Origin: a virus
IMG/VR virus record: IMGVR_UViG_3300017739_000004
Location: 1-64,000 of that record
DNA: 64,000 nucleotides
Direction: 5' to 3' (one strand)
Position numbers and translations under genes: made by a program. Under the pieces are notes generated by a model. The model was not told where the DNA came from, did not search any database, and saw only the letters and a list, made by a program, of their open reading frames with translations. Shown piece after piece: positions 1-64,000 of this stretch; positions within the stretch are counted from its first letter, which is position 1; every line of letters begins with the position of its first letter.

Positions 1-1
1 A

Positions 2-547
2 GGATTTGATTACAGATCAAATTATTCAGATGCATTTGTCATAGGATGTAATGGTGCTTATAAAGAATCAATAGATGCATTAGTATGTACCGATGCTTAT
101 ATGCAACATCTGATTTATGAAACAGGATATTGTAAAGATCATTTATGCTTCTTTAGTGAATGGAATCCAATACCAGATTATGCAGTTGAAACAATAGCAG
201 CTTCTTTCAATAAACCAATTATACAAAATGAAAAAATTTATAGTACCAGTGCTCAGGTAGCAGGAAGTGATGATTATGTATATGTCACATGGGTACAAGA
301 AAATGACATGGTTCGTTCTATCAAAGAAAAGATAATGTCATCTGGTTCAAGAGCATTAGAATTAGCATGTAAGATGGACTTTGATGAAATTCTATTATTA
401 GGATTTGATGGAATGGGAGCACAAAATATTTACCAAAAAGATAAAGGGTATGAAAGATCAACACCTAGAGAAGAATGGGTGGAAGAACGTAGATTAATTA
501 TAGAGCAATATTCTCATATAAATATAATAGATTTACAAACTGGTTAA
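2..547 (+). CDS. 5'-truncated Maf/DUF115 (MptE-like, glycosyltransferase-like) protein
   Basis: Frame is open from base 2 (GFDYRSNYSDAFVIGCNGAY...LVCTD); motifs GCN..D and SSG.RAL.LA...DEILLLGFD. Confidence 0.5.
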   Translation, partial: GFDYRSNYSDAFVIGCNGAYKESIDALVCTDAYMQHLIYETGYCKDHLCFFSEWNPIPDYAVETIAASFNKPIIQNEKIYSTSAQVAGSDDYVYVTWVQENDMVRSIKEKIMSSGSRALELACKMDFDEILLLGFDGMGAQNIYQKDKGYERSTPREEWVEERRLIIEQYSHINIIDLQTG

Positions 548-548
548 T

Positions 549-624
549 GGGGCTGTAGCTCAGTTGGGAGAGCATCTGCTTTGCACGCAGGAGGTCGGAG
601 GTTCGACCCCTCTCAGCTCCACCA
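549..624 (+). tRNA. tRNA-Ala(TGC)
   Basis: GGGGCTG/CAGCTCC acceptor stem with G3:U70, anticodon loop TT-TGC-AC, GTTCGA T-loop, encoded CCA; TATAAATA late promoter at 517-524. Confidence 0.97.
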
Positions 625-636
625 AATGGAGAAAAA

Positions 637-1053
637 ATGTATAGATATAAAGTAGTAGTCACTAGAATCGTAGATGGAGATACAGTAGATGTTGACATCG
701 ATCTAGGTTTCGGTATGACTTATAAAAAGCAAAGAGTTAGAATGATGGGTATAGATACTCCTGAATCTAGGACTCGTGATTTAGAAGAAAAGTTTTATGG
801 TAAAGCAAGTAAAGCTAATTTAGTTAGAATATTAGATGGTAAAGATATAGAATTAGTATCACATGATAAAGGTAAGTTCGGAAGAATACTCGGTGAGTTA
901 TTTATTGGGTCATCTAAGTTTAGTGTTAACCAACAACAAATAGACGAGAATCATGCGGTACCATATTTTGGACAATCTAAAGACGACACAGAACAAGGTC
1001 ATCTTTGGAATAGAGCAGCACTAAATGAAAAAGGTATTATTTACGAAGGCTAA
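637..1053 (+). CDS. Thermonuclease (SNase-like)
   Basis: RIVDGDT, RMMGIDTPE and GKFGRILG motifs. Confidence 0.9.
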   Translation: MYRYKVVVTRIVDGDTVDVDIDLGFGMTYKKQRVRMMGIDTPESRTRDLEEKFYGKASKANLVRILDGKDIELVSHDKGKFGRILGELFIGSSKFSVNQQQIDENHAVPYFGQSKDDTEQGHLWNRAALNEKGIIYEG

Positions 1054-1061
1054 AAAAACAG

Positions 1062-1090
1062 TTTACATTTACTTAAAAATGTGTTATAAT
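1062..1090 (+). promoter_or_regulatory. sigma70-type promoter
   Basis: TTTACA-17bp-TATAAT with TGTG extended -10. Confidence 0.85.
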
Positions 1091-1112
1091 ATAAACTTAT
1101 TATGGAGAGATT

Positions 1113-1445
1113 ATGAAAGAATCATTGAGAGTACTACAAGAATGCGCAGAGCTTCAAGCTAAAAAATCACAAGATTATCAAAGTGACGAATCTACTGTCA
1201 CTCAAGCTATGCACTATCGTAGAGGTGTAGATACAATACACGATATTATTTTAGGCAAAGTTGTTCGTGCAACTTCTTTACTAGAATCTGGCAATGAACC
1301 TAACTTTGAATCACTAGAAGATACTTACAAAGATTTAATTAATTATTCGTCTTTTGCTGTATCTTATATTCGTGGTAAGATGGAAGGTCAAGACCCTAAC
1401 AGAAATATGTTCAACAAAAAGGTAAAGAATGTATCAAGTGAATAA
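1113..1445 (+). CDS. DUF1599/Nmad1-like nucleotide-modification-associated protein
   Basis: KK..DY N-terminus and ESLEDT..DLINY; overlaps the gp42-like gene. Confidence 0.7.
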   Translation: MKESLRVLQECAELQAKKSQDYQSDESTVTQAMHYRRGVDTIHDIILGKVVRATSLLESGNEPNFESLEDTYKDLINYSSFAVSYIRGKMEGQDPNRNMFNKKVKNVSSE

Positions 1446-2106
1446 TACTGCAGATATTGCAGAAGTATTTAAAAAACACCTAGCAGCAGAAAACTTTGTC
1501 ACAGATAAAACAGGTCAAAAGACTATAGAAATAATCGGTGCATCTTTTGTTGCTGATCAGCCAGCAATATTTGGTGAACCAAATGAAAGATATATTGAAC
1601 ATGAATTAATGTGGTATGATAGAAAGTCAACTAATGTTTATGATATATACGGTCATGAACAAGCACCAAAAGCTTGGTTATATTCTGCAAATAAACACGG
1701 TGAAATCAATTCTAATTATGGCCATCTAATTTATTCTGGTAAATACTTTAGACAATACGATAAAGTATTAAAAGAATTACTTACAAATCCAGACTCAAGA
1801 CGTGGCTCTATGATCTATCAAAGACCAAGTATATGGAAAGAATACAAAGAGAATGGCAAGAATGATTTTATTTGTACCAATGCTGTGACATATTATATTC
1901 GTGATAATATGCTTCATGCTACAGTTCAAATGCGAAGTAATGATGTAGTCTTTGGTTATAAGAATGATTATGCTTGGCAAAAAGTTGTTCAAGAAAGATT
2001 ATTAGAAGATTTATATTATAATGGTACACACATCGAATTAGGCCACATTTATTGGCAAGTTCAAAACTTACATGTATATGAGAGGCATTTTGATTTAGTA
2101 ATATGA
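1429..2106 (+). CDS. 42: dCMP hydroxymethylase (T4 gp42-like, thymidylate synthase fold)
   Basis: DFICTN catalytic Cys; MRSNDVVFGYKNDYAWQ closely matches T4 gp42 MRSNDVVFGFRNDYAWQ including the dCMP-specifying Asp; LHVYERHF. Confidence 0.9.
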   Translation: MYQVNNTADIAEVFKKHLAAENFVTDKTGQKTIEIIGASFVADQPAIFGEPNERYIEHELMWYDRKSTNVYDIYGHEQAPKAWLYSANKHGEINSNYGHLIYSGKYFRQYDKVLKELLTNPDSRRGSMIYQRPSIWKEYKENGKNDFICTNAVTYYIRDNMLHATVQMRSNDVVFGYKNDYAWQKVVQERLLEDLYYNGTHIELGHIYWQVQNLHVYERHFDLVI

Positions 2107-2264
2107 AGAAGATATGGACAACTTGGAAATACGCAGTAGGTAGTTTTTCAGATGAACAAACAGAAGAGTACGACAATATAGTTGCGATAGTGAGAACTTT
2201 CATTGTTGGAATTAATATTATATGTGCATTCTTTATTATGGCAAATATAGTACACAATTGGTAA
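2103..2264 (+). CDS. Small membrane protein (53 aa, not in ORF track)
   Basis: MKKIWTTWKYAVGSFSDEQT...; ATGA overlap with the upstream stop; hydrophobic C-terminal half. Confidence 0.7.
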   Translation: MKKIWTTWKYAVGSFSDEQTEEYDNIVAIVRTFIVGINIICAFFIMANIVHNW

Positions 2265-2265
2265 T

Positions 2266-3221: not shown

Positions 3222-3238
3222 ATTTAATGTGTTATAAT
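3210..3238 (+). promoter_or_regulatory. sigma70-type promoter (near-leaderless transcript)
   Basis: TTGACA-17bp-TATAAT; ATG at 3246. Confidence 0.85.
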
Positions 3239-3245
3239 ATACGTT

Positions 3246-4616
3246 ATGATTGGTAAAAAAATTGCAATAGTTTTTGGCAAGGGTCTAGACGGCTGTGGTG
3301 TCGAAAAGTTTGGTTATGAATGGCAAAGATATGATCCAGAAAATATCGATGTCTTTGCATTAAAAGAAAGAGCCTTCAATCGTGGAGGTACTCACATATC
3401 TGATTATGTAGAATTCAAACCAGACGAGATGTCTACAATCGCAGAAAGATTAAACAATGATTATGATATTGTTATAATCAATTCATATCCGAGTCCGATG
3501 CACAATCAAAAAACCGTCACAAGTTTTTATCGTGATCTAATATTAAAAATAGAAAAACCAATTCTAGTAAGTATGATGCATGAGATTATACAATCTAACT
3601 ATGATCGTATTCCATTACAAGTTGCGATCTCAAATGCAGCAGATGTAGTATTTAATTTTTCTACACATACAAATTATGCAAAAGACATGGCAAGAATTCT
3701 TACTAATAAAAAATTAGGTGAGAGAATTGCTAGAATGAAATTACCATTGACACTAGATGATTTTCAGAAGTGGAGAATTACACACGATCAAAAGAAAAGA
3801 AGATGTATCTATGCAGGCCGTTGGTCATCTATGAAACAACCTAATGTGATAATAGAACTATGGGAAAGAGATAAAGACTTTCACTATGCATTACATGGTA
3901 TAGAAAAATCTATTGGTGCTAAGTTTGATGTTATTGACCCTTGTGATTATTTTAGAAAGTATACAGGTACATATAACTATGAATCAGAAAGATGCGAATG
4001 CTTTGGAGAGTTTGATTATAACCAAGGTATGACATTAATATCAGAATCTATGTTTGGTTATAGTGGATTTCATTTACCAAAGATGCCACATAATTATGGC
4101 GATAGATTTGAATATGCACAGATGGAAATAATTGCATGTGGTACAGTTCCGATATTTGATAAACATTATAGTGAACATAACAAAGCAATTGATGGTAGTT
4201 TATTTGCAGAACACGATATTGCAATATGGAATGACCGCAATAATTTAGACAAAACAATAGAAAAGATACATGAGGTTGCAGACGACCATACAACATACTA
4301 TCAATATAACGAAGATGGTTTAGAATTTTTACACCAAGAAGCTGAATCAAGTGTGGTTATACCTCACATGATAAGACATATCTGTATTATGGGTAAACAA
4401 GAAGATAAGTGGAATACACAGGACTTATTAAGAGAAGTTTATAAGACTGAAGAAGTATATGACGAGTTTAATTATTTACTAGATAATAAGATCACAGCTC
4501 TCGGTGTAAAAGAAATTGATAATGGTGATCTAAGTTATTTTGAAAAGAAGGCAAGATTAATACATAAGAACGTGAGTGAATTAAATACGCAATCATTGGA
4601 GGATTTTTTTGGATAG
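3246..4616 (+). CDS. agt: DNA alpha-glycosyltransferase (T4 Agt-like, GT-B)
   Basis: GKGLDGCGVEKF resembles T4 ARGLEGCGVTKF; IINSYP resembles IINSVP; FEYAQMEIIACGTVPIF resembles LEYTHLELGACGTIPVF. Confidence 0.85.
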   Translation: MIGKKIAIVFGKGLDGCGVEKFGYEWQRYDPENIDVFALKERAFNRGGTHISDYVEFKPDEMSTIAERLNNDYDIVIINSYPSPMHNQKTVTSFYRDLILKIEKPILVSMMHEIIQSNYDRIPLQVAISNAADVVFNFSTHTNYAKDMARILTNKKLGERIARMKLPLTLDDFQKWRITHDQKKRRCIYAGRWSSMKQPNVIIELWERDKDFHYALHGIEKSIGAKFDVIDPCDYFRKYTGTYNYESERCECFGEFDYNQGMTLISESMFGYSGFHLPKMPHNYGDRFEYAQMEIIACGTVPIFDKHYSEHNKAIDGSLFAEHDIAIWNDRNNLDKTIEKIHEVADDHTTYYQYNEDGLEFLHQEAESSVVIPHMIRHICIMGKQEDKWNTQDLLREVYKTEEVYDEFNYLLDNKITALGVKEIDNGDLSYFEKKARLIHKNVSELNTQSLEDFFG

Positions 4617-4965
4617 TATAGTAATCGATATAGACGATACAATCTTATTTACAAATCATCAATACAAAGATGCTAAACGTAAATATGGTGAAGCAAAACC
4701 AAATGATATAGTAATCAAAGGTATAAGAAAGCTTCATGCAAAAGGTTATAAGATTATATTACATACAGCCAGACGAATGTTAACCTTTGATGGTGATATT
4801 GAAAAGATTATAGCTGATGTCGGAGACATAACTACATCATGGTTAGAAAGACATGAGGTGCCCTACGATGAACTCGTTTGGGGTAAACCATATAGTTCAA
4901 CCTATTATGTCGACGATAAAGCAATGAATTTACAAGAGTTTAAAGAATGGACAAATTCAATTTAA
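4609..4965 (+). CDS. HAD-family sugar-phosphate phosphatase (capsule-biosynthesis type)
   Basis: DIDDT, LHTAR and GKP..YYVDDKA motifs. Confidence 0.85.
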   Translation: MDSIVIDIDDTILFTNHQYKDAKRKYGEAKPNDIVIKGIRKLHAKGYKIILHTARRMLTFDGDIEKIIADVGDITTSWLERHEVPYDELVWGKPYSSTYYVDDKAMNLQEFKEWTNSI

Positions 4966-6434
4966 TAATACCAGCTGCAGGAGCAGCCACGAGACTAAGA
5001 CCTCTATCCTCGAGCACGTCGAAGGTAATGGTACGTGTGAATGGTAAACCTTGCCTTGACTATATCATAGAGGCAGTCAATGGATCCGTTGACGAAGTAG
5101 TTGTTGTGGATGGCCAATTCACTGATATTCGCGAATATTGTAAAGTGAAACATCCGAAGGTAAGGTTCGCCAACCAACCATCATTAGATGGTCCAAGAGA
5201 TGCAATTAAGATTGGAATGGAAGCTTTAGAAGATAGTGGAAAGCCAGTTGTTGTATGGCTTGGTGATGCAATTATCTTAGAAAAAGGTATGCCATTAGGT
5301 CATGACTTTTTATTAACTAAAAGAGTTGAAGATCAATCAGCATGGTGTATGTGGGATGGTCGAAACTATTATAATAAACCAAAACAACCAGTAGAAAATT
5401 CTAATGCTCTAGTTGGTTTATATTCTTTTAGTGATGGTGTTGCAGCTTTAAATGCTTTTAGTAATACAGATGGTTATGATATATCAGATGCTCTTATTGA
5501 ATATGTTATAGATAAAGATACAACGTTTGCAGAATATATCACAGAAAAATGGTACGATATTGGTGACCTTCCAACATATTATAAAACATGTGCAGCATTA
5601 TTAAACACAAAAGCTCGTGCATTTAATAATTTAAATTTTGATTCTGATTTAGGTACAATCAGAAAATTACCAGACTATCATGACAAACATTCATTAACAA
5701 CATTAAGAGAAGAAAAAGAATGGTATGAACATCTTACTCCAGAGCAATCTATGTTTACACCTAGAATATTACCACATCCTGTTGATTTAATTATGTCATA
5801 CGAAAGTGGCACTTTACTTAGTGATCTTATGTTATACGACAATATACCTAATAGTCATTGGGATTATATTATGGATAGAATCTTTAATATTAAATTAAAA
5901 TATTTTAACAATAGAGTAGAAGATAAAGACATTATAGACAGTTTTGATGAATTATCTAAAAAGATGTGGTGTGATAAAACAGAAGAAAGAGTATGTAATG
6001 AAATGTATGATAGCCATGTCGGTGCTAATCTAATAAAAAGAGCTGAATGGATTTATAAAAGAACATCGCCCATATCTGGAATGCATGGTGATTTACATTT
6101 TGCAAATATATTATATAATCAACAAACAGATCAATTTAAATTTTTAGACCCACGTGGTAATTATGGTGGTTGCATTGGAACAATAGGCGACGATATTTAT
6201 GACTGGGCCAAATTAGCACACGATTGTTATTGGGGTTATAACTCAATTGTTGCTGATGTACCACAAAATAAATATGTTAAAGATTTATTTACACGTAAAC
6301 TAGATGAATATAATTTAGATAAAGATTTAATATTGTATGGTGGATTAGTATTATTAGGTACTTGTATACCATTGCATTATGAAGATGCAGATAGACAAAA
6401 AAGAATGATGGAGATTATTAGAAATGAAATATAG
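4947..6434 (+). CDS. Sugar nucleotidyltransferase fused to APH/choline-kinase-like kinase
   Basis: N-terminal IIPAAGAATRL..K, LGD and WYDIG; C-terminal HGDLHFANIL and FLDPRG. Confidence 0.85.
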   Translation: MDKFNLIIPAAGAATRLRPLSSSTSKVMVRVNGKPCLDYIIEAVNGSVDEVVVVDGQFTDIREYCKVKHPKVRFANQPSLDGPRDAIKIGMEALEDSGKPVVVWLGDAIILEKGMPLGHDFLLTKRVEDQSAWCMWDGRNYYNKPKQPVENSNALVGLYSFSDGVAALNAFSNTDGYDISDALIEYVIDKDTTFAEYITEKWYDIGDLPTYYKTCAALLNTKARAFNNLNFDSDLGTIRKLPDYHDKHSLTTLREEKEWYEHLTPEQSMFTPRILPHPVDLIMSYESGTLLSDLMLYDNIPNSHWDYIMDRIFNIKLKYFNNRVEDKDIIDSFDELSKKMWCDKTEERVCNEMYDSHVGANLIKRAEWIYKRTSPISGMHGDLHFANILYNQQTDQFKFLDPRGNYGGCIGTIGDDIYDWAKLAHDCYWGYNSIVADVPQNKYVKDLFTRKLDEYNLDKDLILYGGLVLLGTCIPLHYEDADRQKRMMEIIRNEI

Positions 6435-7674
6435 TTCAATTATACCACTGATCGGTGGAGAGAGTATAGCGGTAATGAATAAGTTAAATGGACAAATGCC
6501 AGAGGAAGTTTTATCTTACACTGGCTTTGTAGATAACGATAGTCATTACATTAATTATTTAAGAGATAAAGGGTGGGAAGGTAAATACACTTTATTAGAT
6601 GAAAAGTCAAACCATAAACCAAAGAAAGTAGATATCGTAAATACAGTTTGTCCTTGTGCAGGTCTATCATCACTATCACAACATACAGTTCGTAATGAAG
6701 GCCACAATGACTGGATGTTTGAATCAGCACATTATGTTTTAGGTAAGATACAACCAAGAGTGTTTTGGGGTGAGAACGCACCAAGACTAGCAATGGAACC
6801 CGGTAAAGAGGTTGTAGCTAAATTAAGAGATATTGGTAAAGAGTATGGATATACGTTTAGCATCTATAAAACTAAATCTTTAGTACAAGGATATAGCCAA
6901 ATTAGAGATAGAACATTTTACTTCTTTTGGAAAGGAGATCAAACACCTTTACTAGATTATATACACAGACCACATGAACTAATTGAAGATACTATTTCAA
7001 ATGTTGTAAACAAAAAAGACGACCCTATGAGCGTTGTTCCTAATCAGAAAAAACCATCAGACGATCCAGTTTACAAATATTTTTTAAATAAAACTGGTAT
7101 GACTCATGCTGAGTTTGTTGCAGCATTACCTGGACCTAATATGAATTTATTTGATTATATGGATTATATTGGAGGAGAGACTAAATGTGTCGGACCAAAT
7201 ACAGGTAAAACATATGCTGGTTGGCTAGAGGTATTAGAACATTTAAAAGGTAATGATGATGAACATTCTGCTAGATGGGCAAAGAGTATAGAAAGAATGG
7301 TTGCTAAACAAAAAGCTGGTGGTAGCGTTATGAGAAAGAGTACCACATTTCCAAAGGGACATATCGGAGCATTTGTTGGCCACTATCCATCTATGTTAAC
7401 ACATCCAGTAGAAGATAGATATTTAACTTATAGAGAAATGTTATCTATAATGTATCTGCCAGAAGATTTTGAATTATTACATCCAAAGAAATTTCAAAAT
7501 CATATATGCCAAAATGTACCAGTCAAAACTGCTGAAGATATGATGGAACAAGTTATAAAGTTCTGTAATAATAGATTAGATTTAATTGATACTGATTATA
7601 TTTTACAAGATAATAAAAGAAAGTGCCATGAATATGCAGAAAACAGTTTACAATTGGACCAGTTTATGGTATAA
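6424..7674 (+). CDS. C5-cytosine DNA methyltransferase-like protein
   Basis: PCAGLS (motif IV), GENAP (VI), QIRDR (VIII), RYLTYRE and QNVPV (IX/X); motif I degenerate (PLIGG). Confidence 0.8.
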
Positions 7675-7969: not shown

Positions 7970-9021
7970 TGTCAATAATGGATAAATTGAAAAAGAATAG
8001 TAAAGTAAAAAGTACTGATATATTATCAGAATCTATATTATTCGGAGAGAAGGATATGATTCCTACAGATGTGCCTATGGTAAACGTTGCTTTATCAGGA
8101 GATATGGACGGAGGCTTGTCATCAGGTCTTACAGTATTGGCAGGGCCGTCTAAACATTTTAAGACAAGTTTTGCTTTACTTATGGGTTCAGCCTATATGA
8201 AGAAATATCCAGAAGCTGTTATGCTTTTCTATGATTCAGAATTTGGTTCTCCACAGAACTATTTTGAATCTTTTGGTATTGATACAGATAGGGTATTACA
8301 TACACCGATTCAAAACGTTGAGGAATTAAAATTTGACTTAGTTAGCCAATTAGAAAATATTGAAAGGGACGATAAAGTAATTATTGTAATCGATTCAATT
8401 GGTAACTTAGCATCTAAAAAAGAATTAGAAGATGCACTGAATGAAAAATCAGTTGCTGATATGACAAGAGCTAAAGCATTGAAGGGATTGTTCCGTATGG
8501 TCACTCCTTATCTCACTATGAGGAACGTCCCTTTACTTGCTGTCAACCACACCTATCAAGAAATAGGATTATTTCCTAAAGCAATTGTATCAGGTGGTAC
8601 AGGTATTTATTACTCAGCTGATAATATTTGGATTATTGGTAGGCGTCAACAGAAAAAAGGTACTGATGTCACAGGATATCACTTTATAGTTAATGTAGAG
8701 AAATCAAGGTTTGTAAAAGAGAAATCTAAAATACCAGTTGAAGTCACTTGGGAAGGCGGTATCGCATCCTATGGTGGAATACTAGATGTAGCTTTAGCCG
8801 GCGGCTATGTGACCAAACCAAATGTTGGTTGGTACGCAAGAGTTAACAAAGATACAGGTGAAATTGAAGATGGTAAAGTACGAGAAAAAGATACTAAGAC
8901 TAAAGAGTTTTGGGATCCAATCTTTGAAGAAACTGACTTTAAAGAATTTGTAAAATCTTATTATTCTATTGGTCATAAACCATTACTTGACATTGACTTA
9001 GACATAGTAATGGAGGAATAA
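7969..9021 (+). CDS. uvsX: UvsX RecA-like recombinase
   Basis: AGPSKHFKT Walker A, YDSEFG, IDSIGNLAS. Confidence 0.96.
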   Translation: MSIMDKLKKNSKVKSTDILSESILFGEKDMIPTDVPMVNVALSGDMDGGLSSGLTVLAGPSKHFKTSFALLMGSAYMKKYPEAVMLFYDSEFGSPQNYFESFGIDTDRVLHTPIQNVEELKFDLVSQLENIERDDKVIIVIDSIGNLASKKELEDALNEKSVADMTRAKALKGLFRMVTPYLTMRNVPLLAVNHTYQEIGLFPKAIVSGGTGIYYSADNIWIIGRRQQKKGTDVTGYHFIVNVEKSRFVKEKSKIPVEVTWEGGIASYGGILDVALAGGYVTKPNVGWYARVNKDTGEIEDGKVREKDTKTKEFWDPIFEETDFKEFVKSYYSIGHKPLLDIDLDIVMEE

Positions 9022-11895: not shown

Positions 11896-12987
11896 ATGAA
11901 AAGGTTTAAATCTTTTATTTACGAAGCCAGCCTATCTGGCAAAACAACTAAATACAAAGATAACACGGGTGCGTGGTATCAGTATGTCGAGTTGAATCCA
12001 GAATTAAAAACATTAAAGCTAGAAAATGATTCATTTTTATTTGAATTAGATGGAACACCAACAAAAACCGTATTAAAGAAAGGTACTGAATTAGAAATTG
12101 TTGGAAGAGAAGTGAAAACACTGCTAGATTCATCAAGATCAAAATTAGCACATATGAAATATAAAGGTAAAGACTATAGAGTACCTACTAGCAAATTACT
12201 TAAACCTTCAGGTAAAGAGGTTGCACCAATTGAAGCAGACCTAACACAAAAAGAGAATCCAGGTGTATTTACAAACTTCAAGGCAGGGCATGGTCATGAA
12301 GGTCAATTCATTCAAAGATGGATTAATAGTTCTGGTACCCTTTGGGAATTTGAATATAAAGGTAAAGAATATCGTATAACAAATCTAAGTGCACCTACTA
12401 CAAAAACCGTTGGTAATCCAAAGACAGATGTAGTAGTTGAATTAGATAAAAAAATACCAGGCCTAGGTAATAAACTTTATTATAGTTTGAAAGATGCTAA
12501 TGCAACATACTTTGAAAACTGGATATTACCAAAAAGATTCTTTCAAATATTTGGTAGCTCATCTAAAAAGATTATAGAAAATGCTTATGAACAATTGAAT
12601 AAGAATAACAAGATAGGAAGGTCAGGTTATAAATCAGTATCAATTTGCCCTTTTGTTAAGAGTAAACCATATAACCATACTAAACTATCTAAGAGTCAAA
12701 ACATAGAAGTATTATCCGGTGCAAATAAGTTTGGTAAAACTGATGCAACTGCAAATTGCTTTTTTGCTGGTACAGTACCAGAAACTATTGCAGAGATTAT
12801 TGATGGTACTATATCAGTAAAAGATATGGCTGGAAAGATTAATGTCGGTTTAGATTTTAGAGGCTCAAACGATATTAAGAACTCATCAGTCTTTATTAAG
12901 AATGACGAAGGTGGCTGGGATATAAGAGAAAACTGGATTGGAAGAGGTGAACTAAAACTAGATAAAAGCATGGGACAAAGTAAGTGA
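11896..12987 (+). CDS. Putative PD-(D/E)XK nuclease with capsid-targeting-like N-terminus
   Basis: HE...PKTDVV...YSLKD pattern; starts MKRFKSFIYE. Confidence 0.5.
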   Translation: MKRFKSFIYEASLSGKTTKYKDNTGAWYQYVELNPELKTLKLENDSFLFELDGTPTKTVLKKGTELEIVGREVKTLLDSSRSKLAHMKYKGKDYRVPTSKLLKPSGKEVAPIEADLTQKENPGVFTNFKAGHGHEGQFIQRWINSSGTLWEFEYKGKEYRITNLSAPTTKTVGNPKTDVVVELDKKIPGLGNKLYYSLKDANATYFENWILPKRFFQIFGSSSKKIIENAYEQLNKNNKIGRSGYKSVSICPFVKSKPYNHTKLSKSQNIEVLSGANKFGKTDATANCFFAGTVPETIAEIIDGTISVKDMAGKINVGLDFRGSNDIKNSSVFIKNDEGGWDIRENWIGRGELKLDKSMGQSK

Positions 12988-21455: not shown

Positions 21456-22094
21456 ATGAAACTCACTGATAAAGAAGGACTAGAAATTGCAGCCGCCGTT
21501 AAAGACGTGTTGGAAGGAAAAGTCAAGAAAGAAGATAAGAAAAAAGTGCAAGAGGTTGAAGAACCTAGAGCTGCTGGCGAAAAAGAGTTCAAGAAAAAAC
21601 ATATCGTCAAGAAATCAGGAGAAAGACCTGATGGTACGGTAATGAAAGAGGGAAAGCTTAAAGCCGGTAGAGGTAAGGCAACAATAGACGTAGACCATAC
21701 CGGCGAAGGAATACCAGCTGCGCAAAGAAAATTTAAGATCAAATTTAAAAGAAACAGATTTGGTGGAACAGATATTTCTGGAGAAAAGAAAGATATTCTA
21801 GCATATTTACAATCAAAAGATTACGATATGGAATCAGACGATATTGAAGAATTTTTTCCAGAACTTTTAGAAGGTGCTAAACCTAAAGCTGAAGATGTCG
21901 ACGAAGAAGAACTCGAAGATGATAAAGAAGAAGCTGATGAGCAATCTGAAAAGCAAAAGAAATATCAAGCATTCTTTAATAAAGCACTTAAGAAGTTTGG
22001 AGTAAAATCACCAGCTGAATTAGAAGGACCTAAGAAAAAAGAATTTTTTGATTACGTCGATAAAAACTATGAAGGCGACAACGAGGCAGACTAA
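21456..22094 (+). CDS. Highly charged probable prohead core/internal protein
   Basis: YQAFFNKALKKFGVKSPAEL..KKEFFDYVD; GGAG RBS. Confidence 0.55.
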   Translation: MKLTDKEGLEIAAAVKDVLEGKVKKEDKKKVQEVEEPRAAGEKEFKKKHIVKKSGERPDGTVMKEGKLKAGRGKATIDVDHTGEGIPAAQRKFKIKFKRNRFGGTDISGEKKDILAYLQSKDYDMESDDIEEFFPELLEGAKPKAEDVDEEELEDDKEEADEQSEKQKKYQAFFNKALKKFGVKSPAELEGPKKKEFFDYVDKNYEGDNEAD

Positions 22095-29626: not shown

Positions 29627-29754
29627 AACTAGAATGTGAATATTGTTTTAATAGTTTTGTCATAAGACCAGACAATAAAGAAACTCGTATCAATTTCTGT
29701 CCACACTGTGGTGAACCGATAGAAGATGATGACGAGTTGGATTTCCATGAATGA
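29623..29754 (+). CDS. Small zinc-ribbon protein (not in ORF track)
   Basis: CEYC...FCPHCG. Confidence 0.75.
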   Translation: MKLECEYCFNSFVIRPDNKETRINFCPHCGEPIEDDDELDFHE

Positions 29755-30175
29755 TTGGCTTTACGAAGGTAAGGTATTTAATCCACCAGATGATTTCACA
29801 TCCGAAGATTATTATGGATTTGTCTATTGCATTACGCACTTGGGAACCGGGACTAAATATATTGGAAAGAAGTTTTTCTGGTCCAAGAAAACTTTACCTA
29901 TCACAAAGAAAAGAAAAAGACGAAAAAGATTATTAGTAGAATCAGATTGGAGAGATTACTTTGGTTCTAATACACATTTAAAAGAAGAAGTTGTAACAGC
30001 TGGTAAAGATTTTTTTCATAGAGAGATAATTCATTTATGTAAAACAAAAGGTGAATGTGCATATATGGAAGCTAAAGAGCAATTTGATAGAGATGTTTTA
30101 TTATCAGATGATTATTATAATGGTATTATCAATTGTCGTATTGGTGCTCAATCAGTAAAAAACTTAAAAAAATAG
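29747..30175 (+). CDS. GIY-YIG family endonuclease
   Basis: GFVYCIT..KYIGKK, YFGS, YYN. Confidence 0.8.
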   Translation: MNDWLYEGKVFNPPDDFTSEDYYGFVYCITHLGTGTKYIGKKFFWSKKTLPITKKRKRRKRLLVESDWRDYFGSNTHLKEEVVTAGKDFFHREIIHLCKTKGECAYMEAKEQFDRDVLLSDDYYNGIINCRIGAQSVKNLKK

Positions 30176-39195: not shown

Positions 39196-39462
39196 ATGGC
39201 AAGCACATTAAAATTATTAGGGTCGGAAGCGGCTTTAAGTACAACTGCTAGTAATGTCGGAAGAGCTAAACTTGTAAGAGTATTAAATACAGATACAACT
39301 GCTAGATTAGTGACTGTAAAAAGTGGTTCTAATACTATAGGTACTATAACACTTGCACCATCTGAAGTACAAAATATTATGAAATTACCAGCTGAAACTT
39401 TAGAAGTAGCAACGGCAGCAAGTACAAAGGTAAAAGCAGTAAGTATAGCATATACTAATTAA
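39196..39462 (+). CDS. Small beta-rich virion-type protein
   Basis: Coupled late ORF. Confidence 0.55.
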   Translation: MASTLKLLGSEAALSTTASNVGRAKLVRVLNTDTTARLVTVKSGSNTIGTITLAPSEVQNIMKLPAETLEVATAASTKVKAVSIAYTN

Positions 39463-39956
39463 TGGCATATTCAAAAGAGGTCACCGAGAGATTTTATGGG
39501 GTCTTAAATAATCCTCAGAGTTTTTCTGTGGGAAGATTCGACCCCAAAGCGCCTAATGTCGCTACAGGAATGACCGGTGCTCCAGCTTGTGGAGATGTCA
39601 TGAAGCTACAATTAAAGCTGAACGAAAAAGAAGAAATAATCGATGTTAAATTTAAAACATATGGTTGTGGTTCAGCTATAGCATCATCTACAATGTTTGT
39701 AGAAATGCTGAAAGGTAAAACTGTAGAAGAAGCTAAAAAGATTAAAGATCGTGATATAGCAGAAGCTTTAGATTTACCACCAATCAAATTGCATTGTTCT
39801 GTTTTAGCAGAAGATTCTATTAAGAAAGCAATAGAAGATTGGGAAAGCAAAAAACATAGGCAGCATAATTATCAAACTTATCCAACAACAGAGCATGACG
39901 AATCAGATGATTTAGAAGCTGCCAAGAGAGTTGATAATGTCGGAAACACTGATTGA
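39462..39956 (+). CDS. iscU: Fe-S cluster scaffold IscU
   Basis: GAPACGDVM, KTYGCGSAIASS, LPPIKLHCS. Confidence 0.95.
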   Translation: MAYSKEVTERFYGVLNNPQSFSVGRFDPKAPNVATGMTGAPACGDVMKLQLKLNEKEEIIDVKFKTYGCGSAIASSTMFVEMLKGKTVEEAKKIKDRDIAEALDLPPIKLHCSVLAEDSIKKAIEDWESKKHRQHNYQTYPTTEHDESDDLEAAKRVDNVGNTD

Positions 39957-47028: not shown

Positions 47029-47113
47029 TGTGTGACAGTTGTGTGACAACTGTGTAACAATTGTGTGAATTCTTTAAAAAACCGTTTACAAACCTATCAA
47101 ACTATAGTATAAT
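47029..47113 (+). promoter_or_regulatory. Early promoter with four 11-bp repeats in reverse orientation
   Basis: TGTGAC 47031 and 47042, TGTAAC 47053, TGTGAA 47064; TTTACA 47085, TATAAT 47108. Confidence 0.85.
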
Positions 47114-47438: not shown

Positions 47439-47674
47439 TGCAAGTAGTTATAAAAGGAAACCCAATATATAATGGCGTGGTACGTGATGGCGCCATTATA
47501 GAAATACCGGTACCAGCAGAATTGCATGTTCTGGCTTTAGCAAAAGGTCCAGATTCAGGCGATGCATGGGACCTATTGTGTAGAAAGTTACCATCCTATG
47601 GTTTTATGAACCCTATTGGTAAAATGCACATAAGCCATCTAGTGATAGATGGAGTGGAAAAAAGGTTCCACTAA
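47438..47674 (+). CDS. Hypothetical early protein
   Basis: AAGGAGG RBS, coupled ORF. Confidence 0.7.
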   Translation: MQVVIKGNPIYNGVVRDGAIIEIPVPAELHVLALAKGPDSGDAWDLLCRKLPSYGFMNPIGKMHISHLVIDGVEKRFH

Positions 47675-47689
47675 AAATAAACAGGAATC

Positions 47690-47960
47690 GAGGAAGAGCT
47701 GTAGATGGTTGGTTGTTGTGAAGCTCTACGAGATAACCTTAGTAATGATTGGTTTAAAATCAATTAAGACGTGAAATATGGTGTTGAGATCATTACAAAA
47801 AAAGGTTAACAAAGAAGTGACAGAAATTTTGGATAAGCAATTGGGATGTCATGGTAAACGAGATTCTTTATGGTCGTTAGCTATCGACCTAGATAAAATT
47901 CAGGTAAGGCCTGACTTAGAAGGACACGCTGTCGAACTTGGGGTAACACCCAAGCCATTG
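47690..47960 (+). ncRNA. Candidate structured non-coding RNA
   Basis: At least six non-overlapping complementary stems in an intergenic segment. Confidence 0.4.
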
Positions 47961-47978
47961 AAACACCGCAAAAACTTA

Positions 47979-48054
47979 TGTGACCAGCCAGTCACAAATT
48001 GTCACACAATTGTCACACAAAACAGTTGACATTTACAGAAAAGCGTGATACTAT
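47979..48054 (+). promoter_or_regulatory. Early promoter with GTCACA repeats and a palindrome
   Basis: TGTGAC-N6-GTCACA; GTCACA at 47991, 48001, 48012; TTGACA 48026; TG-n-TACTAT 48049. Confidence 0.85.
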
Positions 48055-48234: not shown

Positions 48235-48673
48235 AATAAAATTTGAAAATGTCTCCGAGGACATCTCTTACGCAATAGGCTCTTCTCTTAGAGGCTATAT
48301 TAATGAAGTAACTACAAACCAATTGATTGCAATGTTTGGTGAGCCAAGCAGAGTACCTTCTGGTGATGGTAAAGTCCAACTTGAATGGATTATTAAAACT
48401 AAAGTTATTGAAGAAGATGGCAACGAAATAGATAGTTGCTTTACACTTTACGATTGGAAAGGTTCAGCACCTTCCGATGATAATGCCGAATGGAAAATCA
48501 ATGTTGGTGGTAGATCACAACAAGATTATTGGAATGTATTTGATGCATTTGATATTGCTAACGAAACAGATTTCTTATATGCTTACGATGGTGATGGCAA
48601 ACTATGTCAATCCAAAGAAGGTTTTAGTCTACATCTATTACAGATGTGTAAAGAGGAGGCAGCAAATGGATAG
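48227..48673 (+). CDS. Hypothetical early protein
   Basis: FGEP..GDGKV..EW..FTLYDWK..W.IN.GG; GGAGG RBS. Confidence 0.75.
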   Translation: MDRIKFENVSEDISYAIGSSLRGYINEVTTNQLIAMFGEPSRVPSGDGKVQLEWIIKTKVIEEDGNEIDSCFTLYDWKGSAPSDDNAEWKINVGGRSQQDYWNVFDAFDIANETDFLYAYDGDGKLCQSKEGFSLHLLQMCKEEAANG

Positions 48674-58783: not shown

Positions 58784-59224
58784 TTACAGTACTTTTATAC
58801 CTAGATTCTTTAAAGTTTCTTCTGTCCAGACTTGAAATTGCCAACCATTATGTTTTGCAAACTTATCTGCAGCATTCCATTTATCTTGATTTCTTGAAAA
58901 GGTAAGTGCTTCATTGATATATCTTTTAGTTTTTCTTGATTTCTTTTTAGGTGGCATAGTTTGATTCTTTGGTTTGATTTCCACCAAAAAGATTTTTTTG
59001 TTTTCCATTTCTATTAATAAGTCTACAAAATACCTATGTATTTTATTATCAATAGAACATTTATAAGGAACAACAACTCCTTCACTATTCCATAACTTAA
59101 CTTTGGGGTTATTCTCGCACCATCTAAAGGCATTTCTTTCCCATAATGATCTGAATACCACATCGCGTGTATTGCCAGCATACTTTTCTGGCTTTTTAAT
59201 TGTGTATTTACCCTTGTAACTCAT
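58784..59224 (-). CDS. 4: Head completion nuclease gp4
   Basis: YKGKY, RSLWE, WNSE, HRYFVD, VEIKP, N.DKW.AA; minus-strand late promoter at 59250-59257. Confidence 0.92.
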   Translation of the reverse strand: MSYKGKYTIKKPEKYAGNTRDVVFRSLWERNAFRWCENNPKVKLWNSEGVVVPYKCSIDNKIHRYFVDLLIEMENKKIFLVEIKPKNQTMPPKKKSRKTKRYINEALTFSRNQDKWNAADKFAKHNGWQFQVWTEETLKNLGIKVL

Positions 59225-59273: not shown

Positions 59274-60239
59274 ATGTCAGAAAATACCAATAAAGATGCA
59301 GGTTCTCAAGCATTAGAACCAACAGAAGTATTGTATTATCCATCAAGATTAGAAAGTGATTTGTCTAAAGGTACGTCAATGTTAAAATTTACAATTGTAG
59401 AAAGACGTCATAGAGAAATAATGAAGCATATTTATTTACCATCTCCAAATTCATTTAATTTAAATGATGGTGCTAGTTATGATTCATTGGATAAAGGTGA
59501 TATACAACAAGCTTTTGGTGGAGCCGCTAGTCTGCTTGGCCAAGCAATCAGAGGTGACCAAGCTAGAGGTGGAGGTGCAGCTGGTGCTGAAAGTTTTACT
59601 GCTGATTTAGCTGTTACGGGTTTATTGTTTGGTGGTGGCATACCTATTATTGGTGGATCAATGAATGAAATAGCTTTTCAAGCAGGTGCTGCTGCAAATA
59701 AACAAGAAAGAACCAGATTTACAGGTAATGCTATTCGTACATTCAGTTTCCAAATAGAACTTTCACCAGAAAGTAGTGATGAAAATAAAAAAATAGTTAA
59801 AATATTAGATACATTTAGAAGGTATCTTTATGCTGCTAAAGGTACTAATGTATTGGCATTAGATTATCCACCAGAATTTTTAGTAGAATTTTATAATGGT
59901 AAAAAAATAAACACTAACTTTCCAGTATTTGCTCCAGCATATTTAGAATCTATACAAACTACTTATAATCCAAATACTTTTGCATTACACACAGATGGTG
60001 GTGCAGAAACTTATACACTAAATTTGACATTTAAAGAAAGTAGAAAATTAATTAGAGAAGAAATAGATACATTAAAAGCAAATCAAGAATCAAATACAAG
60101 ACATCAAGAACTTTATAAAAATCAATATTTAACAGCTGATCAAGTTAGCCAATTAGAAAGAGGTGTACGTACATTAGAAAATGAGAAAATAGAAGAGTTA
60201 AAAGAAGCATACTTAGATGAACAAGGAACAGGATATTAG
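59274..60239 (+). CDS. 48: Baseplate tail tube cap gp48-like
   Basis: IYLP.P, RTFSF...P.S.DE, YPPEF, LTFKE; TATAAATA at 59224. Confidence 0.75.
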   Translation: MSENTNKDAGSQALEPTEVLYYPSRLESDLSKGTSMLKFTIVERRHREIMKHIYLPSPNSFNLNDGASYDSLDKGDIQQAFGGAASLLGQAIRGDQARGGGAAGAESFTADLAVTGLLFGGGIPIIGGSMNEIAFQAGAAANKQERTRFTGNAIRTFSFQIELSPESSDENKKIVKILDTFRRYLYAAKGTNVLALDYPPEFLVEFYNGKKINTNFPVFAPAYLESIQTTYNPNTFALHTDGGAETYTLNLTFKESRKLIREEIDTLKANQESNTRHQELYKNQYLTADQVSQLERGVRTLENEKIEELKEAYLDEQGTGY

Positions 60240-60241: not shown

Positions 60242-61165
60242 ATGTTTTTTAATAGATTTCCAAATACTAAATATGACTTTGATGGTCAAGGTAAATTTCA
60301 AAATATAAAAAATATTTTTAGAAGTGTAAGAGCTCTTCCAGAATTTTTAGATACATTTACATCATACAAATTATATGATGTCTTAAATGGTGAAAGACCA
60401 GATATTGTATCTTCCAGATTATATGGAACACCACAATTTTATTGGACATTTTTTGTAGTAAATGATTTCTTACATGATGGTTATAGAGCATGGCCAATGT
60501 CTCAACAAGATTTAGTACAATATTTTGAAACACAATATGAAGGTTTTGTTATAACAACTGATCCAGAAATTGTTCCTGATGCTGATGGGTTAGATACATT
60601 TAAAAATTCTATAGCTGGTCAATTTGATTTAGGAGAAATATTACATGGAGGTACCTCTGGTGCAAAAGGTACTTTAACTAAAAAAGATGTAGACATGAAT
60701 CAATTAGTTATTCAAGATGTGACACTAGGTACTGCTGGTAAACATCCAATTAGTGGTGCAGATGACTCTTCAATTACTGGTGGTCAATTTATTGCTAACG
60801 AAGCTATAATACAAAACTCAAATACTGAACAAGTAGAAAGCCATATTGTTTACAAATATATTGATGCACCATATCAATATTATGCAACAGCAGATTCAGC
60901 AAATCAAAGATCAGTGACTAACAGAACATTTATAAATTCAAGTGAAAAAGAACAAATAGCAATTGATCCTAACAATTCAGAAGCTAATAGTGATGGACAA
61001 GTTTTTAGAACTACAAATAATACAGTAGATGAAAACTTTATTTCATTTAAAACATATCGTGAATATGAAACAGAGCTGAATGATGCTAGATCACAAATTA
61101 GATATGTAGACCCTAATTATATTGGAGAGTTTGTAGAAAGGTTTACAGAATTATTAAACGAGTAA
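60242..61165 (+). CDS. 53: Baseplate wedge gp53-like
   Basis: FNRFP..Y, GERPDIVS..LYG...YW, WP, YE..LND.. Confidence 0.85.
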   Translation: MFFNRFPNTKYDFDGQGKFQNIKNIFRSVRALPEFLDTFTSYKLYDVLNGERPDIVSSRLYGTPQFYWTFFVVNDFLHDGYRAWPMSQQDLVQYFETQYEGFVITTDPEIVPDADGLDTFKNSIAGQFDLGEILHGGTSGAKGTLTKKDVDMNQLVIQDVTLGTAGKHPISGADDSSITGGQFIANEAIIQNSNTEQVESHIVYKYIDAPYQYYATADSANQRSVTNRTFINSSEKEQIAIDPNNSEANSDGQVFRTTNNTVDENFISFKTYREYETELNDARSQIRYVDPNYIGEFVERFTELLNE

Positions 61166-61169
61166 TATT

Positions 61170-62579
61170 ATGACAATTGGTTCAGGCAGTGAAAGCAATG
61201 AAAACCAAGTTTTTTCACCAAAAAATTATCTATTAAGAACAGTCAAACTATTAAGACAAGGATTGGGTGGTCAAGATATTGGCGCTAAAGCTATTGACAT
61301 CACACAAAAAATATTATCTATTGATATTGTAGAAAGTATTTATAAATCTGGCATACAAGTAGATTTACAAATTAAAGATGATGTACAACTTTTTAGTAGT
61401 ATGCGCTTAAATGGTGCTGAAAAGATCGCATTGATTATTTCAAGAGCACAAGATACACCTGACGAAACTATCAAGCTTTTATTATCTATTATTAATATTG
61501 ATACATTTTCAGATGTTAATCCTGGAATGAAATCATATAAATTAAGATGTGCATTTGATTATACTATAGTAAATCAATCAAAAATTATATCCGACGAATT
61601 CACTGATATTTCAAAAAAGATAAGTGACATAGCAAAAACAGATTTAGGTATATCTGAAAAGCTTTTAGATATTAGTGAATCATCACAATCTGCAAAAGGC
61701 ATCATACCTAGAATGAAGCCATTAGCTGCTATTAATTGGTTAACAAGAAATATTGCTGATGCAGGCACACCATACTATTTTTATCAAACTTCTTCTGGTA
61801 CAGTACATTTAAAATCATATAAACAAATGTTAAGAGATATACACGAAGAAGATAATCTTTATACAAATAATGTTAATTTTAATTTATTTGATAAACAAGA
61901 TAAGATGGCTGATTCAACAGAATTGTCCTTTGCACAAGAAAAATTTAATATAATTAGTATTAATTCTAATTTAAATATATCACCATTTAAAGGTGTAGCT
62001 GATGGTACATATAGATCAAACAAATTAAGCTATGATATTTATAAAAAAGAATTTAAATCATCAGTTAAATTCGAAGCTAATGAATTACAAAATCATTTAA
62101 ATAAATTTGCTGCAATTCCAAAAGATTATTTTGAGAATAAAGGTGAGACAGGAAAAAATTATTATATTAATTTAAATAGTGGTGCATTTGATGGTAATGC
62201 TACTAATTATCATAATGTAGTAGATGATATTATACAAGAAAAAGAAGCTTATCATACAAGACTTGAAACAATAACACAAGAATTTGTTATACCTGGAGAT
62301 TTTAATATAGAGGCTGGAAAAGTTATAAGAATATTATTATTAGATAACGCATTTGAAGAAAAGGTGCACGAAGATGATACAGGAGATGCTATTGATAGAC
62401 AAAACTCCGGTCTGTATTTAATTACTTCTATAGTACATACATTTAGAAATCAAGAATTTGTTTCAAGATTAGTATGCAAAAAAGATACACATATAGATGA
62501 CCAGAATCAGCCAATAGATTATTTTGCATCGACTGACCCTGGCAGAACAATTGATTTAATAGGAAATAATAATGGATAG
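61170..62579 (+). CDS. Baseplate hub protein (gp27-like)
   Basis: ESIY, IIPRMKP, YYFYQ, IPGD...AG, SGLYLITSIVH; lies between gene 53 and the spike gene. Confidence 0.65.
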   Translation: MTIGSGSESNENQVFSPKNYLLRTVKLLRQGLGGQDIGAKAIDITQKILSIDIVESIYKSGIQVDLQIKDDVQLFSSMRLNGAEKIALIISRAQDTPDETIKLLLSIINIDTFSDVNPGMKSYKLRCAFDYTIVNQSKIISDEFTDISKKISDIAKTDLGISEKLLDISESSQSAKGIIPRMKPLAAINWLTRNIADAGTPYYFYQTSSGTVHLKSYKQMLRDIHEEDNLYTNNVNFNLFDKQDKMADSTELSFAQEKFNIISINSNLNISPFKGVADGTYRSNKLSYDIYKKEFKSSVKFEANELQNHLNKFAAIPKDYFENKGETGKNYYINLNSGAFDGNATNYHNVVDDIIQEKEAYHTRLETITQEFVIPGDFNIEAGKVIRILLLDNAFEEKVHEDDTGDAIDRQNSGLYLITSIVHTFRNQEFVSRLVCKKDTHIDDQNQPIDYFASTDPGRTIDLIGNNNG

Positions 62580-63012
62580 ACGAGATGATAATTTTAGAAA
62601 TGGTATGTTCAGTTGGTTTACTGGCGAAGTATTAAAGATACATGCGGATGGTACTAATAGAGTAAAAGTATTTCCTCATGGGTATTATGATGAAAAATTT
62701 AATAGTGAAGAAGAAGCAGATAAATTACCATGGGCAACAGTCATGATGCCATGTACCACAGCTGGTACTAATACAAGCCATCAAAATCATAGCCTAGAAG
62801 TTGGTTCTCATGTTGTTGGTTTTTTTAGAGATGGCCCAAGTGCACAAGACCCAATTATTATGGGAACAATACATGGTAAAGATAAACCAACGTTAGCAAG
62901 TCCTGATGTAAAACAGCAAAGATTCCAGGGTGGACAAAATATAATTTTTGATAATAAATCTGGAACAATCACATTGGCTGGTTCTTCAGTTGGTAAAGTA
63001 ATAATATTATAA
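62572..63012 (+). CDS. Short gp5-like baseplate spike (OB-fold)
   Basis: WFTGEV, RVKV, LPWATV, GSHVVGFFRDG..AQDPIIMG. Confidence 0.8.
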   Translation: MDRRDDNFRNGMFSWFTGEVLKIHADGTNRVKVFPHGYYDEKFNSEEEADKLPWATVMMPCTTAGTNTSHQNHSLEVGSHVVGFFRDGPSAQDPIIMGTIHGKDKPTLASPDVKQQRFQGGQNIIFDNKSGTITLAGSSVGKVIIL

Positions 63013-64000
63013 TGACTCAATTAACAGCAACAGTTCCACCAATGGAGTGTCCCGATACACAGTTGCCAACCCCAGCTAATCTAGCAAATCTTTTTGGTAA
63101 TCTGATTACACAAGCCGAGAGAGGTGCGTTATCTGAAATTGCAGAAATACAAGAAGAAGCTCAAAAATTAAAAGAAAAAATAGAAAAGATACGAGAAGAT
63201 ATACTAAGTCCTTACGATCCTAAATTCAAAAGATTAGAAATACCTGAAAAAGAATATGAGATAATGATTACTAGATTAGTCAATGAATATAGTACTTATG
63301 TTCAGGCGAAGATGTTAGAGATTATTGCTGATCTTACAACAATAGAAATTAATGTCACTATATTAGGAGTAGAAGTAGATGCAATCAAATTTGCAATAGA
63401 CAGACCATATCGAGCAGAAATACTTGGACAAATAGATGTTGATAGTATGTATGATTTATTACCACCTGAATATCAAAGCTTTAAAGATAAATTTGATAGT
63501 GCAGATTTAAAAGGTAAAAAAATAAATGACTTTATTGAAACTAAAATAAAAGAATTTTTACAAGGTAATATTATTCAAGGATTAAAAGATTTAGAATTGA
63601 GTTTTACATTACCAACTGATCCAAGAGCTGCTATTCAATTAAAAATTCAAGAAATTAAAGATGATGCAAAGAAAGATATGAACGAAAAGATAGAAGATTT
63701 AAAAACAATTACAATTGGTGGTTATACATTAGAACAAATATTAGGTGGAGAGTTTGATGATAATGTAGAGATAACTGAATTTACTTTTGATAGACTAATT
63801 GATAAACTATTAGTTTTTGCACAAGACTATTGGAGTTATTTAGTAAAAGAAATGCTATCAAAAATAACAGATGCAATCAAAGATATACCTGGATTAGATA
63901 AGATAATAGAATTTTTAACATTTACATTCTGTGATTTCTTAACACTTATAGGATTTCCAAAGACAATTGACTTATCTGCATTCAATGGTATTACAGTAGT
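63012..64000 (+). CDS. 3'-truncated hypothetical structural protein
   Basis: MTQLTATVPPMECPDTQLPTPANL...; appears open to the window end. Confidence 0.65.
   Translation, partial: MTQLTATVPPMECPDTQLPTPANLANLFGNLITQAERGALSEIAEIQEEAQKLKEKIEKIREDILSPYDPKFKRLEIPEKEYEIMITRLVNEYSTYVQAKMLEIIADLTTIEINVTILGVEVDAIKFAIDRPYRAEILGQIDVDSMYDLLPPEYQSFKDKFDSADLKGKKINDFIETKIKEFLQGNIIQGLKDLELSFTLPTDPRAAIQLKIQEIKDDAKKDMNEKIEDLKTITIGGYTLEQILGGEFDDNVEITEFTFDRLIDKLLVFAQDYWSYLVKEMLSKITDAIKDIPGLDKIIEFLTFTFCDFLTLIGFPKTIDLSAFNGITV

Follow-up and report, generated by a model that had tools for sequence, protein, structure and literature searches.

Introduction

Tsp45I and MaeIII are type II restriction systems that recognize the palindromes GTSAC and GTNAC, respectively (S being C or G, and N any base). 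Restriction-site avoidance is itself well known in non-temperate double-stranded DNA phages, where short palindromes are silently and almost completely eliminated, several words can be lost at once, and the lost words differ between related phages (Rusinov et al. 2018, PMC6286503). In the same survey, coliphages with a hydroxymethylase avoided only 2.4% of host sites, as compared to 55.8% for related phages without one. Here we describe the loss of GTAAC and GTTAC (jointly GTWAC, W being A or T) from the IMG/VR virus record IMGVR_UViG_3300017739_000004, a contig of 102,948 bp with 33% GC belonging to an uncultured, lytic, marine T4-like myovirus. The window referred to throughout is the first 64 kb of this contig (positions 1 to 64,000), and the contig itself represents ~61% of the genome as estimated by CheckV.

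The phage resembles those in the avoidance survey in that a palindrome has been silently driven to near-elimination, several words are affected, and the affected words differ between related phages. It differs in carrying a hydroxymethylase, since surveyed coliphages with this gene showed no avoidance, and in that the avoided word has no characterized cutter. GTWAC shares the five-base GT-N-AC form of the Tsp45I and MaeIII sites, and bacterial carriers of the Tsp45I family purge their own site; here, however, the central base is W rather than S, and GTSAC is enriched. As in T4, which glucosylates its hydroxymethylcytosine (hmC), there is a gp42-type hydroxymethylase with the catalytic Cys and specificity-determining Asp, a deoxycytidylate (dCMP) deaminase, and an Agt-like transferase. 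Unlike T4, this phage adds a sugar-nucleotide cassette and a C5-methylase-like gene, and strong site avoidance coexists with all of these genes.

Results

GTWAC is the most depleted five-letter word in the genome

The window contains eight GTWAC sites, at 8402, 29993, 47054, 47587, 47943, 48308, 59216, and 59613. A first-pass annotation made from the sequence by eye had listed seven of these, all of which are real, and had overlooked the site at 59216. It had estimated roughly a hundred sites from base composition; the computed expectation is 125. More stringent null models gave 94.4 ± 10.1 sites (100 dinucleotide-preserving shuffles), 95, 93, and 70 sites (Markov models of first, second, and maximal order, the last being order 3), and 71-75 sites when synonymous codons were permuted within genes or genome-wide (z = -10.5). 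The corrected ratio of observed to expected sites in the window is 0.08-0.11, far from 1, and the strong avoidance claimed in the first pass stands against codon-shuffled controls.

Across the entire contig there were 17 sites versus 154-163 expected (z = -16 to -17.5). Under the synonymous-shuffle null, no other of the 512 strand-merged 5-mers was as depleted as GTWAC (ratio 0.11), and it ranked as the most depleted 5-mer under the Markov null as well. The frequency of GTAC was normal in this genome. GTSAC was the second most enriched word, with 161 occurrences versus 88 expected (1.8-fold), and TCACA was also enriched genome-wide. Hence, a short palindrome is strongly under-represented relative to both composition-aware and codon-aware nulls, as is characteristic of restriction avoidance. 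The features discussed below are collected in Table 1.

Table 1. Positions of remaining GTWAC sites and of related features in the window.
Feature	Position	Strand	Details
GTAAC/GTTAC depletion	1..64000	no strand	8 sites vs 71-125 expected; persists through the rest of the contig
gp42-type dCMP hydroxymethylase	1429..2106	+	Matches T4 enzyme 1b49, E 2e-69; catalytic Cys and cytosine-specifying Asp kept
Agt-like transferase, HAD phosphatase, nucleotidyltransferase fusion, C5-methylase-like gene	3246..7674	+	Cassette present in all purged loci covering the region, and also in non-purged ones
uvsX recombination patch	8000..8700	+	96-99% identity to IMGVR_UViG_3300020388_000022; carries site 8402
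GTAAC site	8402..8406	+	Inside uvsX; sole site in the first 29 kb
Restriction-enzyme-like open reading frame, 363 amino acids	11896..12987	+	SH3-like N-domain and MspI/HinP1I-like PD..SxK domain; no link to the GTWAC purge
SegE-type GIY-YIG homing-endonuclease gene	29726..30175	+	PF19835, E 2e-37; mobile gene; holds site 29993 (GTAAC)
IscU/NifU gene	39462..39956	+	68-70% identity to SAR86 single-cell genomes, at most 63% to any other bacterium found
Operator-like array of 11-bp repeats	47029..47070	+	Precedes early promoter; units GTGACA, GTGACA, GTAACA (47054), GTGAAT
GTTAC site	47587..47591	+	Small early open reading frame, frame 3, Lys-Leu-Pro; unexplained
Conserved non-coding element, ~297 nt	47683..47979	+	Contains site 47943; no Rfam match
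Second array, inverted orientation	47990..48019	+	Three TGTCAC units (GTGACA form); no GTWAC
GTAAC site	48308..48312	+	GTGAC in relative L228; unexplained
GTAAC site	59216..59220	+	End of minus-strand baseplate-module gene; unexplained
GTTAC site (Val-Thr)	59613..59617	+	In PHROG 230 baseplate tail tube cap gene (59274-60239); unexplained

Sites are lost through silent changes at the DNA level

GTW codons account for 77% of Val codons in this genome, yet for only 9 of the 132 that precede Thr (3 of 52 in the window). This recoding had been noticed in the first pass, and all nine of the example positions given for it read GTCAC or GTGAC, with one small correction (42721 should be 42724). Other reading frames tell the same story. 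The share of C-ending codons among Tyr and Asn codons was 1-3% after a codon ending in GT versus 16-19% elsewhere, and TTA was used in 3 of 21 G-Leu-C contexts versus 61% of Leu codons overall. Depletion spanned all three reading frames, both strands, and non-coding repeats.

Comparison with relatives revealed how the sites disappeared. At positions of GTWAC in relatives, the usual counterpart in this genome is GTCAC or GTGAC, followed by ATWAC and GTWAT. The loss was chiefly due to W to S changes at the central base rather than a C-to-T spectrum. That is, the replacements are whichever silent option each frame allows, not a single mutational direction. Loss through silent changes, independent of frame and strand, is typical of restriction avoidance. 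Together with the patchiness among kin and the other purged palindromes described below, the involvement of all frames and non-coding DNA and the use of available silent swaps bear out the proposal that selection acted against a short DNA palindrome.

The purge is patchy among close relatives

Hundreds of relatives of this phage exist in marine viromes. The closest deposited genome, Phage C48C1, has a TerL of 67% identity. We surveyed 80 TerL-anchored and 80 UvsX-anchored loci from such relatives. At most loci the observed number of GTWAC sites was near that expected, while a minority were strongly purged: 0 sites versus 22 expected (L104), 8 versus 39 (L043), 4 versus 29 (L045), and 8 versus 37 (L072). 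L186 (2 versus 32) and L169 (6 versus 21) are purged as well. L169 and L168 (ratios of 0.28 and 0.16) encode gp42 and Agt-like proteins that are 96% and 94-95% identical to those of this phage, respectively. The nearest relative by UvsX (97% identity) is IMGVR_UViG_3300020388_000022, represented by loci L008, L170, and L181. It is also 79-93% identical to this phage in the Agt-like, HAD, nucleotidyltransferase, and C5-methylase-like genes, yet it is not purged (31 GTWAC sites versus 34.6 expected).

In a tree of UvsX, every purged locus fell inside one well-supported subclade of 40 members. The purge state changed at least 6 times within this subclade, a number that recombination may inflate. 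Variation of this kind between related phages is expected under restriction avoidance if their hosts differ. The gene families enriched in purged loci comprised antisense artefacts, the modification cassette, and a 165-amino-acid open reading frame (ORF) at 22094, an enrichment that is confounded by ancestry and locus sampling.

Half of the remaining sites can be explained

Four of the eight sites in the window are explained by the element in which they reside: a recombination patch, a homing-endonuclease gene, an operator-like repeat, and a conserved non-coding element. The site at 8402 belongs to a patch of ~700 bp in uvsX, the flanks of which are only 74-88% identical to IMGVR_UViG_3300020388_000022. 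This non-purged relative (locus L170) has an identical GTAAC in the same context at the equivalent position, and identity to the purged L169 over the patch is only 79%. Judging from these identities, the site at 8402 is a recent import by recombination. Near the 3' edge of the patch, GTCAC is found at 8668 (within a stretch of 96-97% identity) and at 8743 (91%), where the same relative has GTTAC. The shared site at 8402 and the two GTCAC replacements imply that recombination brings sites back and that they are subsequently eliminated.

As the first pass had recognized, four sites lie within 47.05-48.31 kb, in the early region; they make up half of the eight in the window. One of these is a unit of the operator-like array. 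Relatives have 3-4 GTWACA units at the equivalent place, including the purged loci L182, L185, and L196. In this genome, 5 of 7 units across the two early-promoter arrays have the form GTGACA, which gives the impression that the pressure on GTWAC has recoded the operator too. The site at 47943 lies in the loop of a hairpin, CTTGGG-GTAACA-CCCAAG, and is kept both in L228 and in an otherwise unrelated contig, L229. The 297-nt element around it is 93.6% identical in IMGVR_UViG_3300030430_004287, a contig that shares nothing else with this genome. A scan of 46.9-48.5 kb with Rfam returned zero matches.

Outside the window, the bin at 100-102.5 kb was an outlier with 5 sites (P = 6e-4 under uniform depletion). 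Three of the five sites in this TerL region (100-102.3 kb) are common to the relatives L003 and L004. Identity of the region to non-purged relatives is raised, but it is raised to distant relatives too, so the region may, but need not, be a recent import. We also considered whether a flanking T and A might protect surviving sites as a form of thymine shield, and rejected this idea given that only 4 of the 17 sites in the contig read TGTWACA.

Other palindromes are purged in this and related phages

GTWAC is not the only word to have been purged. AGATCC, GGATCT, and AGATCT (AGATCY) are absent from this genome, with 0 occurrences versus 82 expected from synonymous shuffles. TGATCA occurs 7 times versus 40 expected in the contig, with three occurrences in the window (1554, 25721, and 60137). 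AGATCA is enriched (124 versus 72). The nearest relatives that are not purged of GTWAC are also depleted in AGATCT and TGATCA.

Different combinations of words are missing elsewhere. GATC is nearly absent from the loci L028, L039, L043, L045, L053, L095, L100, L104, L107, and L110. C48C1 is purged of CCSGG (0 versus 19.7). The cultured phage Melnitz, which infects OM43 Methylophilales (L227, MZ577097.1 31168-72034), is depleted in GATC (4 versus 136), GGWCC (0 versus 29), and CGCG (0 versus 16) while having a normal number of GTWAC sites; the passages covered of the paper describing Melnitz do not mention a purge. L175 (IMGVR_UViG_3300038618_000026) has AGCT 0 versus 41.5, TGCA 37 versus 126, and GTWAC 11 versus 34. 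It is a distant phage whose genes in common with this one are only those for HAD, nucleotidyltransferase, and IscU. This mix-and-match of purged short palindromes looks like restriction avoidance (PMC6286503).

Modification genes coexist with the purge

The hydroxymethylase, the deaminase, the Agt-like transferase, and the sugar-nucleotide genes suggest that the phage's DNA probably contains hmC carrying a sugar. The rule reported for coliphages that a hydroxymethylase means no avoidance (PMC6286503) fails here, as a gp42 homologue is encoded and yet GTWAC, AGATCY, and TGATCA are purged. It is because of this report that the coexistence of a hydroxymethylase and a purge is unusual. The first-pass description of GTWAC as a motif that hmC does not block is a fair one in light of the encoded hydroxymethylase and Agt-like transferase.

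Three ORFs had been named as possible causes of the purge, and none is supported as such. The ORF at 6424-7674 (+ strand) resembles C5-cytosine methylases (PF00145, E 1e-13, far below the NCBIfam cut-off), and it sits beside hmC-sugar genes in many relatives. A homologue with 82% identity is present in a close relative with normal GTWAC. More generally, this ORF and the accompanying Agt, HAD, and nucleotidyltransferase genes are not a sufficient determinant of the purge, since GTWAC counts are normal in one close relative that carries them all.

The ORF at 11896 matched the type II restriction-enzyme model of PADLOC (REase_II, E 6e-8) and has a conserved PKTD...SLK motif. In its predicted structure (mean predicted confidence, pLDDT, of 82), the C-terminal domain resembles MspI and HinP1I with a Z of about 6. 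No methylase was found beside it. Homologues with 72% identity are encoded at loci L180 and L181 of relatives, where GTWAC is normal (27 versus 26.6 and 21 versus 24.7), as it is in the carriers L188-L195. We therefore rejected this ORF as the GTWAC cutter. Its carriers tend to lack TGATCA, although the contrast with non-carriers is weak (0.36 versus 0.58), and CCGG and GCGC are not avoided. The third ORF (29726) encodes a SegE-type homing endonuclease and has a GTAAC within its own sequence. Scans with Pfam or PADLOC of 64 of the ~125 ORFs identified no other restriction-enzyme-like genes.

Candidate enzymes and hosts

GTWAC is among the methylated motifs of marine metagenome-assembled genomes (MAGs) that match no REBASE methylase, although the report does not state whether these are prokaryotic or viral (Hiraoka et al. 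2022, PMC8919816). This implies that a GTWAC-recognizing methylase exists in the sea. We also looked at the Tsp45I family (PF06300), which had no match in the contig or in five purged records, all of them fragments, and which occurred in 1 of 401 Alphaproteobacteria. This family was rejected as the agent because 18 family loci showed GTSAC loss or none, and never GTWAC loss. Moreover, GTSAC is enriched in the phage, rather than avoided as would be expected with an enzyme of this family.

The Tsp45I family was informative in another respect. The Rhodospirillaceae MAG MC1 (G136, loci L203-L209, NQOV01000002.1) is a 36% GC alphaproteobacterium with a pair of genes for a methylase and a Tsp45I-family enzyme. 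Across 120 kb, its own site GTSAC was found 0 times versus 72 expected, and GCGC (4 versus 170), CGCG (3 versus 140), and CCGG (15 versus 135) were also scarce. That carriers of the family lose their own GTSAC suggests that GTNAC-type enzymes leave such footprints.

The phage encodes UvsX, a gp41-type helicase, RNase H, gp32, gp59, a class I ribonucleotide reductase, baseplate and neck proteins, and TerL. It has a CsgF-CsgG-curlin-FecR-cyclase block in common with Pelagibacter phage HTVC008M and the OM43 phage Melnitz. Based on its IscU/NifU sequence (Table 1), SAR86 is the best lead, as either host or gene donor, which is a lead rather than proof. The GC content of SAR86 (30-39%) is compatible with that of the phage. 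A host search with TerL and cytochrome c matched only mis-binned phage contigs in MAGs. The closest cytochrome c homologues (77% and 56%) are on contigs of 111 kb and 121 kb (L410 and L411) in Rhodobacterales and Sphingobacteriales MAGs, which are probably mis-binned phage.

Discussion

We consider it reasonably likely that GTWAC was purged because an endonuclease specific for this word, encountered by the phage within infected cells and not blocked by its hmC-sugar DNA, selects against the sites. The cutter could be a type II-like restriction activity of some host strains, or of mobile elements or rival phages within them. Every GTWAC site would raise the risk of cleavage, so that site-destroying silent changes would spread: GTW-ACN to GTS-ACN, xGT-WAC to xGT-WAT, and TTA to other Leu codons. 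Relatives free of this pressure would keep returning sites through recombination. The incompleteness of the purge and the recently imported site fit a per-site, dose-like cost. Since a phage with probable sugar-hmC still purges GTWAC, the enzyme would have to be indifferent to modification of the outer C in its site. What the analysis shows is the depletion itself, its silent and DNA-level character, its patchiness across the phylogeny, the re-imported site, and the constrained exceptions; a nuclease as the agent, its origin outside the phage, and its tolerance of the modification are inferred.

Several points weigh against this explanation. To our knowledge no GTWAC cutter has been characterized, and no GTWAC-cutting enzyme was found in this analysis. 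Hydroxymethylase carriage is reported to abolish site avoidance in coliphages (PMC6286503), so a cutter that ignores modification must be assumed. GTWAC depletion was not observed in 20-kb samples of 106 SAR86-order species (pooled 2161 sites versus 2122 expected, with a minimum ratio of 0.48), nor was a GATC or AGATCY purge found in any of the 106. SAR11, host of the related pelagimyophages, is reported rarely to carry restriction systems (PMC7029224). Taken together, the lack of a footprint in SAR86 and the rarity of restriction in SAR11 suggest that a host-encoded nuclease would not belong to the core genes of these clades; strain-specific islands, mobile elements, or rival phages may carry it instead. 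Lastly, the contig being only ~61% of the genome leaves room for a cutter borne by the phage itself.

This last point raises the alternative of self-avoidance, wherein the phage carries an unguarded GTWAC cutter for use against host or rival-phage DNA and is safe from it through having few sites. The gene would be in the missing ~39% of the genome or among unrecognized ORFs. Candidate host clades that seem poor in restriction systems, the presence of one restriction-enzyme-like ORF (11896), and the total absence of AGATCY are all in its favor. However, GTWAC is not absent from the genome: 17 sites remain, one of them recently re-imported, which a phage with its own unguarded cutter should not tolerate. 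The candidate ORF does not co-occur with loss of the word, neither the contig nor the five purged relatives revealed a Tsp45I-family gene, and the 64 of ~125 ORFs that were scanned offered nothing further. In any case, such a cutter would not be expected to attack the phage's own hmC DNA. For these reasons a self-encoded unguarded nuclease is disfavored, and we regard it as unlikely. Somewhat less probable still is a liability specific to hypermodified phages, in which hmC within GTWAC is not sugar-coated by the transferase or a type IV-like nuclease recognizes the modified C there. T-even glucosyltransferases do leave some hmC unmodified depending on neighboring sequence. All three purged genomes covering the region carry the hydroxymethylase and sugar-nucleotide cassette, as compared to 0 of 31 cassette-free loci being purged (Fisher p = 0.009, uncorrected for shared ancestry or locus sampling), and purged loci are all within one subclade. 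Yet five relatives bearing the cassette are not purged, one of them very close, and GATC and TGATCA are purged in Melnitz too, which has no hydroxymethylase annotated in the 41 kb examined.

The remaining two alternatives invoke no nuclease. Stray GTWAC might be avoided as decoys for a regulator that binds the GTWACA operator-like repeats, a notion to which the 3-4 units of relatives, spaced at 11 bp before an early promoter, and the one surviving here (47054) lend some appeal. The relatives L173 and L174 argue to the contrary, as their GTWACA arrays are intact and their genome-wide counts are normal. Also, GTGACA has largely replaced GTWACA in the arrays of this phage, and its genome is enriched in GTSAC and TCACA, which is the opposite of decoy avoidance. 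The first-pass suggestion that GTWAC is a regulator's target is contradicted by these same observations, and we judge the decoy explanation to be highly improbable. A neutral mutational bias, such as deamination at methylated C, or a translational codon-pair effect is even harder to credit. A C5-methylase-like gene is indeed encoded, but the loss is mainly from central W to S instead of C to T, which contradicts a mutational reading. Neither version can account for effects that extend to every frame, both strands, and non-coding repeats, or for close relatives with the same genes and codon usage being undepleted.

Returning to an external nuclease as the cause, a more specific version places its source outside of host chromosomes. 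In streamlined marine bacteria with few restriction systems, the GTWAC purge may be driven by nucleases of rival phages or mobile elements that cut sugar-modified hmC. We offer this only tentatively, as it is more doubtful than the general explanation. If true, the mosaic of purged GTWAC, GATC, AGATCY, and TGATCA would record the competitors that each lineage meets.

As restriction-site avoidance is already established, the gain from this case is incremental. It adds a close pair of purged and non-purged phages, a recombination patch, recoded operator arrays, and the context of hmC. The finding points to a common marine GTWAC-cutting activity, without a described enzyme, that apparently ignores cytosine hypermodification. 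Purged and non-purged near-relatives, along with the re-imported site, constitute a natural experiment on the speed of recoding under restriction. The results also show that hydroxymethylase genes do not always make site avoidance unnecessary.

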